64,000 nucleotides of DNA from Akkermansiaceae bacterium (lineage in GTDB: Bacteria; Verrucomicrobiota; Verrucomicrobiia; Verrucomicrobiales; Akkermansiaceae), in assembly GCA_025363295.1 (NCBI GenBank), contig JANYEC010000026.1, forward strand, positions 5,849-69,848, given 5' to 3'. Of this stretch, positions 389 to 41,925 are shown piece after piece (the stretch's first letter is position 1; the number at the start of each line of letters is the position of its first letter). The translations under genes were made by a program, and so were the position numbers. The notes beneath the pieces were generated by a model that worked only from the letters and a program-made list of their open reading frames with translations, made no database searches and had not been told where the DNA came from.

Positions 389-1300
389 ATGCTTTCCATT
401 GAAGAAATGCGTCGTGCATTGGAAGTCCGCTTAGGGCGTTCTCCAAGCGTGCGTCAAGTCATCGGGCGAGAGCATTATTACCTACAAGACCCCCTTGTCA
501 GCCACGTCCAACGCGGAGATCACAAGTTCCGGTTCGATTATCGTAACGGATTGCTGGTCGATCTGGAGCAGGAAGCAATATACTTCTCTCTCATGCATTG
601 TCCCGCTGTGACCAAGCATTTCAAAGGAAATTTCGATTTCAATCGCTTTCTAGCCATTCTCGAACACACGCGATTTTGGAGAGATCGGCACGTTCTTGGA
701 TGGTCATCAGTCGCAGATCAGAAGGACGTTTGGATCATCGAAGAAGACCACAGCATATTCAAAGAGGCTTTATTGCGCTGTGATGCCGAGTGGGGATTGC
801 CGAAGGATTTGTTTTTTGGTCTTGATCGACGACGGCACACCAATCCCAGCGGGAAGCGTGGCAACTACTTTTCGACTTTGATTGGATATATCGACAGAAT
901 CAACTCTGCGGATGAATTGTTGAATGAAGTCATGCCCTTGCTTGGATGGTGTCTCCCTTCGGAACAGCATCCCGGTCGTGTCGCGTCATTGGCAGCTTCT
1001 TTGCGCGGTGCGGGCATTGCCGAACGATGTGAGTTCTCGTCCATTACAGGAGCTCCATCTGATTTCTATCAGGCCGAGTGCAGCGGCAGAATCGAAGGCG
1101 CACACATCAAGCCTCACGCACAAGGTGGTGGTGCTGGGTGTGACAACGGACTCTGGCTTTGCAATTCCCATCATCGCATGTCTGAGGGAAGGATTTCTGG
1201 AACTCGTAAGGTAACGCGATGGAAAGGAAGAGTCGAATCGGGTCGAGGTGACGGGATTGCGCCCGTCATCCCTCCCACACCACCGGACATGCGGGTTTGA
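389..1300 (+). CDS. HNH endonuclease domain protein (cassette ORF); last ~21 codons come from the inserted intron
   Basis: C-terminal EGAHIKPHAQGGGAGCDNGLWLCNSHH matches the HNH_2-type H...N...H motif. ATG 389 follows the attC R' box (the track start at 362 lies inside attC). Confidence 0.75.
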   Translation: MLSIEEMRRALEVRLGRSPSVRQVIGREHYYLQDPLVSHVQRGDHKFRFDYRNGLLVDLEQEAIYFSLMHCPAVTKHFKGNFDFNRFLAILEHTRFWRDRHVLGWSSVADQKDVWIIEEDHSIFKEALLRCDAEWGLPKDLFFGLDRRRHTNPSGKRGNYFSTLIGYIDRINSADELLNEVMPLLGWCLPSEQHPGRVASLAASLRGAGIAERCEFSSITGAPSDFYQAECSGRIEGAHIKPHAQGGGAGCDNGLWLCNSHHRMSEGRISGTRKVTRWKGRVESGRGDGIAPVIPPTPPDMRV

Positions 1301-1369
1301 CTGCGTTCCTCCGTCCATGCGGGCAGGCTTCGCGGTTTTTTTCCGAGCCGCTACAGCGGCCATGGCATT
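1299..1369 (-). repeat. ~71-bp inserted element, copy 1 (in intron domain V loop)
   Basis: Splits domain V. Shares A.TGCC-N3-GCCGC-N4-GCGGC...GCGAAGC-N3-CCCGCA...GGAGGA with copy 2. Confidence 0.65.
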
Positions 1370-1386
1370 GCATCCGGCGGTTTCTA

Positions 1387-1788
1387 TCAGACGACGGAAG
1401 CAGGCCGTGACCTTTCTCCGTAGTGCAGTTTGATCCAGATTTCCCTCATCTCTGGAACCCCTTGTTCCTTCAGCCATCGGTTGTTGAGGCATTGATGCAC
1501 GATCTTGTTAGAGCTCATGCGCCAGTATCTTTTTCGGCTCCGGGTTGCCATGTGAACCTTCTTGGGATTCGCCCCCAACTTTAGTAGGTTTCGCCTTCGC
1601 GTGCGCGGCCTTTTCCACTTTTTATCCTCCCTGCGGAACGATCTGCGGGATCGCTTCGCATTGGATTGAGGCCGCCATCGCGGCTGGGGCAGTCCAATAG
1701 TATCACCTGACTCGCCTTCTCATCCATTCATCCAGTTCCAAAACTTCGCGGTAGGTGTGGCTGATCCCGAAGTAGTTTGAGCTGCCAC
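1387..1788 (-). pseudogene. ltrA: group II intron reverse transcriptase/maturase C-terminal fragment, disrupted
   Basis: NYFGISHTYREVLELDEWMRRRVR*YYW, then a 70-bp insert, then KKWKRPRTRRRNLLKLGANPKKVHMATRSRKRYWRMSSNKIVHQCLNNRWLKEQGVPEMREIW. This is the class C IEP X-domain pattern, with an internal stop and a frameshift. Confidence 0.85.
1624..1693 (-). repeat. 70-bp inserted element, copy 2 (in RT coding fragment)
   Basis: Sits exactly between the codons for YYW and KKW and shifts the frame. Same motif order as copy 1. Confidence 0.7.
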
Positions 1789-1789
1789 G

Positions 1790-1922
1790 AGTGTCTCGTA
1801 AAACTCACAATGACGAATGGGGAGGTGGCGAAGCATCGTTGGGGAGCACACGCGAGGGCGCGTGTGCTCCCCAAGATTTTGAACCTTCGCGGCATCTACC
1901 CACTACTACTATACGAGACACT
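1790..1922. mobile_element. MITE-like element (133 bp)
   Basis: Perfect 11-bp terminal inverted repeats AGTGTCTCGTA (1790-1800) / TACGAGACACT (1912-1922). Internal perfect 16-bp stem TTGGGGAGCACACGCG-AGGG-CGCGTGTGCTCCCCAA (1839-1874). Abuts the truncation point of the intron. Confidence 0.6.
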
Positions 1923-4554: not shown

Positions 4555-6243
4555 ATGCCAAACCCCTCCGTCTTCATCAGCTATGCGAGAGCGGACGAGG
4601 CGACGGCTTATCGCATTTGCGAAGAACTCGAACACCGTGCCATTTCCTGCTGGATCGCTCCCCGCAACGTGCCACCGGGGATGGATTATGGGCAGGCAAT
4701 CATGGACGGCATCAAAAATTGCCCGGTGATGCTCGTGATGCTTTCTGAGGATTCCGGGCAATCTCGATACGTCGGCCGCGAAGTGGAACGCGCCGTCACC
4801 CACGATGCCAAATTGCTGCCGGTTCGACTCGCAAACATCCAAATTCCCGAACGCTTGGAATTTTTTCTAGGCTCCTGCCAATGGTTCGATCTTTTCCATC
4901 CACAAGATGAGCGCCGCTTGGCGGATTTGTGTGACTCCGTAAGCCGCTTGCTGGACCCAGGAAGCCGACCACCTGTTAGCTATGAGGGAAAGCCAAAAAC
5001 AATCGCTCCATCCCCCTCCACCCCAGCGAAAGGATCGCGGAAAATCATCGCCTCGCTTGCACTTCTCGCCGTCTTGCTTTCAGCAGGATTGGCGTGGAAA
5101 TTTCTCCCTCGTGGCCCATCTCAACCGGGATCACTCACTGATCCTATCCATGCCAAAGTCGCTCTGATAGGTCCTGAAAATGGCGCGAACTGCCTGGGCA
5201 GCACCCAGCTTGAATGGTCCGAAACTGGCCTCCAAGAATCTCTGCTCGATGGCTTCGAGGTGGAGATCACTCAGCCCGGAAAGCTGCCTGTGGTGAACCG
5301 CACCGGCATCCGTTATTCCTTCCGGCCTCAACAGATTTCCGGCGAATTGGACTGGCGTGTCCGGCCAATTTACAACGATGGCAAGTTCGGGAAATGGAGC
5401 GAGCAGCGGAAAATCATCCAAGATCAGGACGCCCTCAGCCGCATCCTCCGCACCCATGAGCTGCACCTAGGCCATGCCGAGAGCGGCAACAATTTCATCA
5501 ATGGCGAAAGCGCCACCTTGAGCGGCTTCGATGTTGATCTAGCAAAGGAGCTCATCACCCGCATCCTCCGCCGTCGTGATCCCTCGGCCACTCTCAAGCT
5601 GGTCCCGCACGCCACCCGCTGGACCCGCCCCGGACCCGATGGGAAACCTATCTATTTCCTGGGCCTGCTCCAGCGCGACGAGTCGGTGGACATCCTCGCA
5701 TCCGGCATCTCTATCACCTCCCAGCGCGAGCGGGACGGACTGGCCTTCACCACGCCCGTCCTCATCTATCCACAGACCCTGATCACCCCGAAAAATGCGC
5801 CGGGATTTAACGATGGAAAGCCTGTGTTCCAAAAGCTCGGTGCCGTCGATGGTACCACGAACATGGTGCTCGCCCACCAAATCGAGAAGAATGCCCAGGA
5901 CGTCACCGTGTTGCCTTTCACCGGCTCTGGAGCCCATGAGAAAATGCTCGAAGCCCTCTTCGAATCCCGCCAGATCGACGCTTGTCTCGTCGATAAACCC
6001 CTCGCCATCAAAAAGATTAAAAGCTTCCAAGGTAACGACGCCGACGTGGAATACAATGCCATTGATATCCGCGAGTTAGACGGTAAGTCCATCGCGCCCG
6101 AGCGCATCGGCTTCGCCCTCCGTCCGGGCGACAAGGCACTACGCGAAGCACTCAACCGTGAGATTGCGGACACGACCGAGCTCCGCCGCGATCTCGTGAA
6201 AAAGTATTTCCCCATGCTCGATCCGCTAACGGAAGTCCCCTAA
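4555..6243 (+). CDS. TIR domain - TM - FN3/Ig-like - family 3 solute-binding domain protein
   Basis: N-terminal VFISYARAD...WIAPRNVPPG.DY...SRYVGREVERA (TIR_2), TM IIASLALLAVLLSAGLAW, beta-rich LEW...WRVRP...GKWS segment, then GFDVDLAKEL...SITSQRE...GFALRPGD (SBP_bac_3-like). Confidence 0.85.
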   Translation: MPNPSVFISYARADEATAYRICEELEHRAISCWIAPRNVPPGMDYGQAIMDGIKNCPVMLVMLSEDSGQSRYVGREVERAVTHDAKLLPVRLANIQIPERLEFFLGSCQWFDLFHPQDERRLADLCDSVSRLLDPGSRPPVSYEGKPKTIAPSPSTPAKGSRKIIASLALLAVLLSAGLAWKFLPRGPSQPGSLTDPIHAKVALIGPENGANCLGSTQLEWSETGLQESLLDGFEVEITQPGKLPVVNRTGIRYSFRPQQISGELDWRVRPIYNDGKFGKWSEQRKIIQDQDALSRILRTHELHLGHAESGNNFINGESATLSGFDVDLAKELITRILRRRDPSATLKLVPHATRWTRPGPDGKPIYFLGLLQRDESVDILASGISITSQRERDGLAFTTPVLIYPQTLITPKNAPGFNDGKPVFQKLGAVDGTTNMVLAHQIEKNAQDVTVLPFTGSGAHEKMLEALFESRQIDACLVDKPLAIKKIKSFQGNDADVEYNAIDIRELDGKSIAPERIGFALRPGDKALREALNREIADTTELRRDLVKKYFPMLDPLTEVP

Positions 6244-12844: not shown

Positions 12845-14410
12845 ATGTTGTTCACCCCACCAACTCTGGCACTTGAAGCGGTCCGCAATACGGCGGCTTC
12901 GGTCGCTCTCGCTCAAGCGTCAGGGTTGGGACTCTTTCTATATGGATGCGCCGAATTCCTCGGGACAGGAGCAAGCGCATCACAACAAACGGATTCCCGC
13001 ACCGCTCCTGGCTGGTTGTCGGTGCGGGGTCCGGTTACTTTCATGGCTGGGCGCACGAAGTCTCTCGGGACAGAGCTTTTCGCGCTTTTTGAAACGATGG
13101 TCCGCACTGCTTCTGGCTGGTTGCCAGTGCGGCCATCGCAAATTTTCTATCAAAGACAGAACCAAGGGCTCGGGACAGCGCAAGGTTTTGTCGATCAAAC
13201 AGATGTCCGCACCGCTCCTGGCTGGTTGTCGGCGCGGCGTCTGGTGACTTTCATGGCTGGGCGTAAGAGGTCTCTCGGGACAGAGCTTCTCTCGCTTTTT
13301 GAAACGATGTGCCGCACCGCTCCTGGCTGGTTGTCAGTGCGGCCATCGCAAATTTTCTATCAAAAGCAAAACCATGGGCTCGGGACAGCACGAGGTTTTG
13401 TCGAACTAACGGATGCCTGCGCTACTTCTGGCTGGTTGTCAGCGCAGGCTTCCGTCGATTTTTCAGAGGCTCCGGTGAATTCCGGAAACTATCATCACCC
13501 GGTTTTTCCGATCGAGACTGCCCATTGGATTGGTGCTGCTCCAGATAAGTTCATTATCGACGGCACGCTGGGTGGCGGAGGACATAGCGAGATTTTTCTC
13601 AAAGCTGGGGCTCGAGTGTTAGGGGTTGATCGCGATCCAGAGGCCTTGGCTCACGCAAAGGCAAGGCTTGCCATCTTCGGAAACCGCTTTTCCACATGGG
13701 AGGGCAACTTCTCACAGATTCAGGAAATCCCCGAGATCCAAAGGGGGGAACGGGCTGATGGCCTGCTGATGGATCTCGGGGTTTCTTCGCGTCAGTTAGA
13801 TTCAGCAGTTCGTGGATTTTCCTTTATGCGAGAAGGTCCACTGGACATGCGGATGGGGCCATCCAGTCCGCGCACTGCCGCAGACGTGGTGAATCACTGG
13901 GCGGAAGCGGACCTTGTGAAAATTCTGTTTGAATTCGGTGAAGAATCGAAAGCACGCCGGATCGCGGGAGCAGTTGTTAGACAGCGTGCCGAGAAGCCAT
14001 TCGCCACCACCCTGGACCTTGCAACTTGCGTCGAGCGCGCGATTGGTCGCAAAGGCCGCACGCACCCGGCCACCAAAACATTTCAAGCAATTCGGATGGC
14101 AGTGAATGAAGAGTTAGAATCACTTGCCACCGCACTCGCCGCCGCACCGTCGGTTCTCAAGCCCGGAGGTCGTTTGCTGATTATCACTTTTCACAGTTTG
14201 GAGGATCGGATGGTGAAGCGGTTTTTAAAACACCGATCCACCGAATTTCTTGATGATCCGGGGTGGCCCGAGCCCCGCCCGAATCCGGATTACCAATTCC
14301 GGCTGCTGGCGAGAAAAGCCATCATCCCCACCGCTGAGGAAACATCCCTGAACCCGCGAGCCCGCAGTGCAAAACTGCGGGTTGCCCAGCTTTTAGACCC
14401 CAAGCTATGA
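12845..14410 (+). CDS. rsmH: 16S rRNA m4C1402 methyltransferase RsmH/MraW; start either ATG 12845 (repeat-containing extension) or GTG 13475
   Basis: HHPVFPIE, IDGTLGGGGHS, DLGVSSRQLD, GPLDMRM, HPATKTFQAIRMAVNEEL, ITFHSLEDRMVK, NPRARSAKLR. Confidence 0.95.
   Translation: MLFTPPTLALEAVRNTAASVALAQASGLGLFLYGCAEFLGTGASASQQTDSRTAPGWLSVRGPVTFMAGRTKSLGTELFALFETMVRTASGWLPVRPSQIFYQRQNQGLGTAQGFVDQTDVRTAPGWLSARRLVTFMAGRKRSLGTELLSLFETMCRTAPGWLSVRPSQIFYQKQNHGLGTARGFVELTDACATSGWLSAQASVDFSEAPVNSGNYHHPVFPIETAHWIGAAPDKFIIDGTLGGGGHSEIFLKAGARVLGVDRDPEALAHAKARLAIFGNRFSTWEGNFSQIQEIPEIQRGERADGLLMDLGVSSRQLDSAVRGFSFMREGPLDMRMGPSSPRTAADVVNHWAEADLVKILFEFGEESKARRIAGAVVRQRAEKPFATTLDLATCVERAIGRKGRTHPATKTFQAIRMAVNEELESLATALAAAPSVLKPGGRLLIITFHSLEDRMVKRFLKHRSTEFLDDPGWPEPRPNPDYQFRLLARKAIIPTAEETSLNPRARSAKLRVAQLLDPKL
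12959..13483 (+). repeat. five tandem 105-bp units (A/B alternating), each with a CTCGGGACAG box and a hairpin; putative cis-regulatory RNA array
   Basis: CTCGGGACAG at 12959, 13064, 13169, 13274 and 13379. Hairpins at 12997, 13102, 13207, 13312 and 13416 with loop CTYCTGGCTGGTTGY and covarying stems. Confidence 0.92.
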
Positions 14411-41563: not shown

Positions 41564-41569
41564 AAAAAG

Positions 41570-41925
41570 TGGAGGCGAGGGGAGTCGAACCCCTGTCCGA
41601 AACGCCGTCAACACTGGCATCTACACGTTTAGCATGCGGTCTAGAGTTTCGGACAGGCTGGGCCCTCATGCAGCGTTGCTCATCCTAGAAACCTGTTTGA
41701 TCTCGGAAAAACGCCCGGTTACCCGACGCTAATCCCAGCCTGCTAGGTGTTCGCCATCCCCCTCAGCAGGTGTCGGGGTTCTGACGTGGTCGTCAATTAA
41801 GCGGCCAGTGCGAGCTCGTTAGAGTCTGCATTTATTTTTTTTGAACGGCTTTTTAAAGAGGCCAACCGATCAACCTCTACGTGCAACCAGCGTCTCAAGC
41901 ATCCCGTCGAAACCAGAACGCCCCC
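41570..41925 (-). ncRNA. ssrA: tmRNA; tag peptide (A)ADSNELALAA at 41829-41797
   Basis: 5' GGGGGCGTTCTGGTTTCGACGGG, 3' T-arm GGGGTTCGACTCCCC and acceptor CCTCCA; tag ORF ending ALAA-stop. Confidence 0.97.

Follow-up and report, generated by a model that had tools for sequence, protein, structure and literature searches.

Two inserts in a group II intron fragment of an Akkermansiaceae bacterium and the small, probably mobile element family to which they belong

Two segments of about 70 nucleotides (nt) interrupt a group II intron fragment in the genome of an Akkermansiaceae bacterium, which raises the question of what these inserts are and how both came to lie in one intron. The fragment is located on contig JANYEC010000026.1 of GenBank assembly GCA_025363295.1, in a stretch of 64,000 nt (positions 5,849 to 69,848) referred to here as the window. 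The minus strand of the window at 1237-1806 represents the 3' portion of the intron, with insert A in the catalytic domain V (DV) and insert B in the reverse transcriptase (RT) gene. A reading made from the sequence alone (the sequence-only reading) had described them as related copies of a tiny mobile or repetitive extragenic palindrome (REP)-like element. Our analysis indicates that the inserts very probably belong to a mobile insertion family and were inherited with the intron. On balance, A and B are likely to be old copies representing two subtypes of one family of non-coding, non-autonomous mobile elements.

Both inserts lie exactly where the sequence-only reading had placed them, A splitting DV and B falling precisely between the RT codons for YYW and KKW. 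On the minus strand, the junctions read ...ACCGCCGGATGC | AATGCC...GCAGTC (1369->1299) | AAACCCGCATGTCCGGTGGT for A and TAC TAT TGG | ACTGCC...GGAGGAT (1693->1624) | AAA AAG TGG for B, although 1298-1368 and 1623-1692, each shifted by a single base, would serve equally well as boundaries. As had been noted, neither insert has a terminal inverted repeat (TIR) or a target-site duplication (TSD) beyond the 1-nt "A" ambiguity. Near-identical empty versions of both sites exist in other loci, which are cited here by our L numbers. The DV site is empty (GGATGC-GGAC-CCGCATGTCC) in five loci with flanks 86-98% identical to the window, including four with full 5' and 3' flanks (L095, L100, L102 and L110), as well as L107, which is supported by its 3' flank and a 28-nt match on the 5' side. 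The RT site is empty in L097 and L098 (CTATTGG|AA(A/G)CAATGG), and another contig of the window's own genome carries an intron scrap with uninterrupted LYY*KQWKQPRTRRRNLL and no insert. Filled sites were found in seven loci for B (L026, L036, L052, L054, L060, L137 and L144) and in three intron lineages for A.

A pattern search for the element core gave matches in 15 of 101 related genomes and four matches with the reversed pattern used as a control. A first covariance model, built from eight B-type copies, matched 38 of 401 genomes of the family; among 300 genomes sampled from elsewhere in the phylum, it produced two weak matches. For a second model (R2), we used 53 non-redundant copies from other genomes and left the window out. 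In the 64-kb window, it matched only A and B, confirming that they are related, and a scan with R2 for copy number revealed 1-21 copies in 122 of the 209 genomes of the genus. Public records with copies are titled Akkermansiaceae, Luteolibacter or Verrucomicrobiae metagenome-assembled genomes (MAGs). The family is therefore specific to Akkermansiaceae (Luteolibacter-like Verrucomicrobiota) and almost absent elsewhere in the phylum. Its members are 58-75 nt long, and hundreds of copies occur across about 30 different insertion contexts. Together with the empty sites, the precise ends and the lack of matches to A or B among the Rfam covariance models (E ≤ 10), these contexts bear out the proposal of a tiny mobile element that resembles REPs and is apparently undescribed. 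Copies outside the intron lineage and empty alleles dispose of the possibility that the segments belong to every member of that lineage and occur nowhere else. Searches of plasmids and phages with the element found no match, and a literature search covering tiny bacterial introns, mini-insertions in hsdM or introns, and IIC/attC domain V insertions found no description of it.

The genome of the window contains four copies, namely A, B, one on contig C58 and one on contig C32. The C58 copy (13040-13113) is a 5'-truncated A-type element in another intron 3' piece. This second 3' fragment (C58:12886-13260) has an empty DV (CCCTGTAC-AGAGCC-GTACGCAGGG) and carries the truncated element at an RT C-terminal site (...|KAIWIVLH). 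The C32 copy (2524-2591) is degenerate and lies within a remnant of hsdM (C32:2300-2889, DPACGSGGMF...), which has a large internal deletion and bears the degenerate 69-nt-type element at LVD|NMVAFPGQLF.

The element has a conserved anatomy. Read on the element strand, an initial A is followed by N-T-G-C, hairpin 1 with a stem of 4-7 bp, a linker, a 7-nt mini-hairpin and then CC-G-C-A-N', and the 3' part consists of a terminal hairpin (P3) of variable form and a final A. NTGC and GCAN' pair as a 4-bp closing helix (P1), which encloses hairpin 1 and the mini-hairpin. P3 directly continues the 3' strand of P1, which brings both ends of the element together at the feet of these two helices. Over the 53 copies, the variable pair of P1 is CG in 36, AU in 11, GC in two, UG in one and another combination in three; the stem pairs of hairpin 1 covary, as does the closing pair of the mini-hairpin (GC 47, CG 5). 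The fold is paired in 94.1% of cells, as compared to 80.5% after shuffling, and its covariation score of 0.287 contrasts with 0.082 for shuffled alignments (0 of 500 shuffles) and at most 0.076 for slid controls. The element folds on one strand only. The GGAGGA that the sequence-only reading had listed as common to A and B proved not to be homologous, as it belongs to the last hairpin in both but lies on its 3' strand in B and on its 5' strand in A.

The hairpin tips are of a DNA type. Of 92 copies, 55 have GCGATAGC at the tip of hairpin 1, and 80 or more fit GCGNNAGC or GCGNAGC there; the second hairpin is GCGNAGC or CCGAAGG. The most common loops are GATA, TGTA and GGTA, which follow the DNA-type GNTA and not the RNA-type GNRA pattern, and stem mispairs of the G.T type (8) are no more frequent than A.C (7). 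The motifs at both tips are those of mini-hairpin DNA, which is extraordinarily stable in DNA form but far less stable in RNA form and is known from origins of single-stranded DNA, from ssiA and from promoters of phage N4 (PMC13037366). The motifs, the loops and the lack of a G.U excess thus hint that the functional form of the element is single-stranded DNA. In an A-type subfamily (L228, L231, L006 and L019; genomes G802 and G046), a conserved left flank, GGACCGCCCGG, pairs with CCGGAGG of the element. The unit of flank and element resembles a DV hairpin with an expanded apex, a hint that type A may be derived from a DV.

Insertion is seamless at 5'-(G/C)^AA-3' (S^AA), with no inverted repeats and no duplication. 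Among 29 non-redundant sites, position -1 is G or C in all 29, position +1 (the base following the A shared by element and target) is A in all 29, and position +2 is A in 20. The element ends, A-NTGC at the 5' side and GATA, GACA or GTCA at the 3' side, are not complementary. Copies are found mainly within other selfish or defence DNA. The sites in group II introns include at least six positions in the RT gene, the DV loop and domains I-IV, as indicated by Rfam group-II-D1D4 matches around the copies. At least four positions in hsdM (one of them directly before NPPF) and hsdR represent type I restriction-modification genes, and the remaining genic sites are in an IS91-like transposase gene, a methyltransferase (MTase) gene and a small open reading frame (ORF) family of metagenomes. 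In copy-rich genomes, intergenic repeat clusters also hold copies, and some intergenic subfamilies have as many as 14-21 members. By our own classification, the orientation relative to the host genes is approximately 13 sense to 3 antisense. This bias and the phase-0 placement can be attributed to S^AA being most common at NNS|AAN codon boundaries in a GC-rich genome. In hsdM, the MTase gene and the small ORF, the inserts have lengths of 66 or 69 nt and are in frame and free of stop codons; among all copies, 42% have a length divisible by three. Deletions via recombination between two copies were identified in L058, L061 and L069.

Two of these host groups are of interest in their own right. 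The hsdM genes of several Akkermansiaceae MAGs (L086, 5051-6520, G050:C55; L024; L028) are open over about 490 codons despite several different short Arg/Ser-rich in-frame insertions, one of which is a repeat coding for LCDLCAFAV, and they have lost the S-adenosylmethionine (AdoMet)-binding motif I. The small ORF (MEPIEVPPHAIWRDDF...PIELDLGD...EEEWVV) belongs to a GC-rich repeat of about 420 nt found in L157 (9590-9656 and 13026-13092), L176 and about 20 other metagenome loci, and in every copy seen it contains a 66-nt element in frame.

The A+B arrangement is common to intron copies in at least four other assemblies (B in L052, L053, L054 and L144; A in many more), which have different 3' flanks. 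Within the intron lineage of the window, the elements share 82-97% identity, with flank identities of 76-95% upstream and 89-93% downstream. Because the elements diverge in step with their flanks, A and B were inherited and not acquired in this genome; the idea that the element had hit the same intron twice therefore does not hold for this genome, where A+B is ancestral. A was probably acquired before B, since L097 has A yet an uninterrupted YYW|KQW site. Comparison across intron lineages shows 80-89% identity for the A elements but only 62-73% for their flanks, which argues that similar elements inserted repeatedly into the same DV loop, with a homing-like preference for this site.

Intron 3' pieces carrying A were found at at least ten loci, nine of them in one genome, with unrelated flanks and with 5' break points at reference positions 33, 85, 107, 159, 202, 298, 374, 383, 409 and 417. 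Thus, the intron lineage multiplied after gaining A, whatever the source of the pieces (abortive retromobility or later deletion). Since the multiplied copies kept A, the insert in the DV loop was tolerated and was not spliced from the copied RNA. The expectation that either insert should inactivate the intron accordingly fails for A; B does break the RT frame, with a shift of +1. In another intron lineage (L026, G008:C1), an unrelated insertion of about 36 nt (GGCCTGCCCGCCGGAGCTTTAGCGTAGGAGGGAGCC) is present in the DV apex, and such expansions of the DV loop may be frequent among these IIC-like introns.

In comparison with known systems, the element can be placed among small non-autonomous repeat elements, but it is not a member of any of the classes considered. 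It is not a miniature inverted-repeat transposable element (MITE), as there are no TIRs and no TSD. With the palindrome-associated transposable elements (PATEs) of IS200/IS605 and with REPs and REP doublets forming hairpins (REPINs), which are mobilised by Y1 HUH transposases (TnpA and the REP-associated tyrosine transposases, RAYTs), it shares a tiny non-coding sequence, the absence of TIRs and TSD, strand-specific (in PATEs, subterminal) hairpins, and seamless insertion and loss. Also as for PATEs and REPs, Y1_Tnp-domain genes are abundant in the same genomes, and some subfamilies are intergenic and multi-copy. REPs and REPINs are extragenic and often arranged in inverted pairs, and the RAYT gene is flanked by the repeats. 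In contrast, the element is mostly intragenic and single, has no GTAG or CGTC tag, and consists of three hairpins instead of a single imperfect palindrome; among the Y1_Tnp genes of five genomes, no transposase gene is flanked by element copies. The tetra- or pentanucleotide target abutting the left end of PATEs is absent, the left side being constrained only at -1 (G/C), and neither the loci examined nor the window's own genome yielded an autonomous element with matching ends.

The Rickettsia palindromic elements (RPEs) are selfish DNA and likewise short structured repeats inside ORFs; their in-frame position is shared by the copies in hsdM, the MTase gene and the small-ORF family. However, RPEs are about 100-150 nt long and unrelated in sequence and host phylum, and many copies of the present element break reading frames and most lie in introns or defence genes, not in housekeeping genes. 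The nesting of a small element in a group II intron, including the ribozyme core, recalls twintrons and the group III mini-introns of Euglena, and type A mimics a DV hairpin (ATGC...GCAT-GG-ACGGAGG). Unlike these introns, the element has no GUGYG/AY ends or DVI-like branch site, occurs in antisense copies and stays in the copied RNA. Both element tips are exactly of the GCGNNAGC, GCGNAGC or CCGAAGG type known from the phage G4 origin, RSF1010 ssiA and phage N4 promoters, but those are fixed functional sites of replicons and not dispersed insertions.

With respect to mechanism, the mobile form would be one folded DNA strand. It would be cut where the feet of the helices adjoin and then inserted into single-stranded target DNA. 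The enzyme would be supplied in trans, the most plausible candidate being a Y1 HUH (IS200/RAYT-like) protein encoded by these genomes, which possess 7-20 Y1_Tnp-domain genes each. We propose this single-stranded DNA/HUH scheme tentatively, and several observations weigh against it or against the mobile-element interpretation more generally. None of the Y1_Tnp genes in the five genomes examined is adjacent to an element copy, and a search for orphan half-elements in the loci examined and the window's own genome returned only noise or truncated copies and no autonomous relative. The multi-copy 1.15-kb Y1_Tnp units have ends unrelated to the element. The target recognised by IS200/IS605 elements comprises 4-5 nt and lies solely on the 5' side, whereas the conserved target bases found here straddle the cut, and the two element hairpins differ from one another. 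As no two copies observed were identical, there is no sign of recent activity. The spread of A-carrying fragments could partly reflect cassette shuffling or later deletions and not retromobility, and the enrichment in group II introns could point to a route linked to RNA or RT. A bolder alternative, which we consider rather improbable, would be a new seamless integration chemistry using a folded strand with ends held by stacked helices and an S^AA target outside the known HUH, DDE and recombinase rules. The element would then be a hyperparasite homing repeatedly to the same intron loops and codons, including the DV loop of a ribozyme that tolerates it and is still retromobile. The 1.15-kb units were observed in L258-L262 (G318 and G379) as a gene for a 356-aa Y1_Tnp-domain protein with an upstream palindrome (CTACAATTTGTCTGGGAAATTGTAG), in 17-20 copies per genome and often at contig ends.

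The most serious rival to movement as DNA is an RNA-mediated hyperparasite, whose RNA would enter intron RNA or other transcripts through RT template switching or a ribozyme/ribonucleoprotein reaction and become fixed on reverse transcription. More than half of the independent sites lie within group II introns (ORF, DV and D1-D4), identical intron sites have been struck repeatedly in diverged lineages, and the sense orientation predominates. A 1-nt junction overlap is typical of template switching by group II RTs, and the overlap at the element ends fits this pattern. This route nevertheless appears unlikely given the three well-populated antisense sites (RT motif 1, RT motif 7 and hsdR), the many copies in hsdM, intergenic repeats and the small-ORF family, and the DNA-type loops with no G.U excess, while the sense bias is explicable by the frequency of S^AA at codon boundaries.

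A tiny intron or twintron, removed from RNA by self- or trans-splicing and leaving RT, DV and hsdM functional, would account for the exact restoration of host frames upon deletion of the element, for insertion at conserved motifs such as NPPF and YYWKQWK, and for a compensatory change in orthologous hsdM copies from GCGC/GCGC to GAGC/GCTC. The RT is also intact on one side of some inserts (419 aa downstream in L023 and 389 aa upstream in L036). Most element-bearing RT ORFs are decayed, however, antisense insertions exist, and the multiplied intron fragments all retain A, so that the copied RNA had not lost it. The in-frame, stop-free inserts of hsdM and the MTase gene are as expected for translated and not spliced sequences, and no GUGYG/AY ends or matches to ribozyme families were found, which makes this explanation very unlikely. 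It is hardly conceivable that the inserts are a lineage-specific structural expansion of the intron, or a product of chance similarity or mis-assembly. The positions of A and B are indeed conserved in several intron copies, as an expansion would predict, but empty alleles and copies in unrelated genes and intergenic DNA contradict it. E-values of 1e-13 to 1e-18 from a model made without the window speak against chance, and mis-assembly is excluded because the identical arrangement recurs in at least ten independent assemblies.

Several more specific candidates were considered and discarded. In the window copy, CCAAT of the element linker pairs with ATTGG of the 5' flank in a guide-like manner, but other copies of the site do not reproduce this pairing. 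Recoding by the +1 shift (the upstream frame ends GGA GGA TAA at the 3' junction of B) is incompatible with other copies, which need +2 or have internal stops; for internal re-initiation from GGAGGA, the following start codons are out of frame. A bypass of the T4 gene 60 type lacks matching take-off and landing codons, and the G^TT polarity of an integron attC or cassette model does not fit. Hammerhead, hepatitis delta virus (HDV)-like, hatchet and twister ribozymes gave no Rfam match at E ≤ 10.

If confirmed, the family would add to the known small mobile elements one whose target rule and anatomy are both unusual, the anatomy being marked by two DNA mini-hairpin caps and juxtaposed ends. It would also be a fresh example of selfish DNA inside selfish DNA. 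Insert A provides a natural experiment, in which the lineage still spread although a branched insert of 71 nt occupies the apical loop of DV, the most conserved region of the group II ribozyme. It bears on how much of the DV loop is needed and on the engineering of cargo into introns. The hsdM copies of 66 and 69 nt that stay in frame are reminiscent of the RPEs and extend the phenomenon to another phylum. In Akkermansiaceae MAGs, the elements also account for many RT and hsdM calls that are frameshifted or "split", and they drive deletions via recombination between copies.

The coordinates of the elements and of the host intron are listed in Table 1. The intron has the features of group IIC, including the CGC triad, a G.U wobble and a 2-nt bulge in DV, a GIIM domain and an RT that terminates about 60 aa past the X domain, with no endonuclease domain. 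The definition of the triad as CGC or AGC has been described, and both the CGC triad and the G.U wobble have been reported for some group II introns (PMC4424553). The upstream RT piece (1703-1804) translates as ...NYFGISHTYREVLELDEWMRRRVR* and is followed by YYW; the peptide joined without 1624-1693 has a match to Pfam GIIM that spans the junction (PF08388, E=2.5e-7). The 9-bp lower DV stem is preserved in the predicted fold both with and without insert A, and in the empty allele it is followed by the 2-nt bulge, a 4-bp upper stem and a tetraloop. Rfam misses the window intron because its DV is interrupted, whereas fuller relatives give group-II-D1D4 matches. Nothing RT-like is present upstream of about 1805, so that the window copy is 5'-truncated and a dead fragment anyway. 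Copies related to this intron occur in 68 of the 209 genomes of the genus, and the 3' flanks of the intron pieces have an (A/G)TTNGNC-like motif in common.

Table 1. Elements A and B and the parts of the interrupted group II intron in the window.
Feature	Position	Strand	Remarks
Element A, 71 nt, AATGC subtype	1299..1369	minus	DV apical loop; R2 51.1 bits, E=9e-13
A hairpin 1, GGCCGC-TGTA-GCGGCT	1346..1361	minus	
A mini-hairpin, GCGAAGC	1327..1333	minus	
A closing helix P1, ATGC (1365-1368) with GCAT (1317-1320)		minus	
Element B, 70 nt, ACTGC subtype	1624..1693	minus	Between RT codons YYW (1694-1702) and KKW (1615-1623); R2 68.9 bits, E=6.5e-18
B hairpin 1, GCCGC-GATG-GCGGC	1671..1684	minus	Tip of GCGNNAGC type in most family members
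B mini-hairpin, GCGAAGC	1653..1659	minus	
B closing helix P1, CTGC (1689-1692) with GCAG (1643-1646)	1643..1692	minus	
5'-truncated group IIC-like intron fragment	1237..1806	minus	RT thumb/X-domain remnant, domain V, domain VI
RT C-terminal reading frame, KKWKRPRTRRRNLLKLG...HYGERSRPASVV*	1387..1623	minus	
Domain V 5' strand, ACCGCCGGATGC	1370..1381	minus	CGC catalytic triad; pairs with 1279-1298
Domain V loop remnant and 3' strand, AAACCCGCATGTCCGGTGGT	1279..1298	minus	

Immediately upstream of the truncated intron, the window contains a strong perfect hairpin at 1813-1897 (GGGGAGCACACGCG..CGCGTGTGCTCCCC), which may be another small repeat or a terminator marking the truncation point. A tmRNA gene is located on the minus strand of the window at 41567-41925 (Rfam RF00023, 154 bits).

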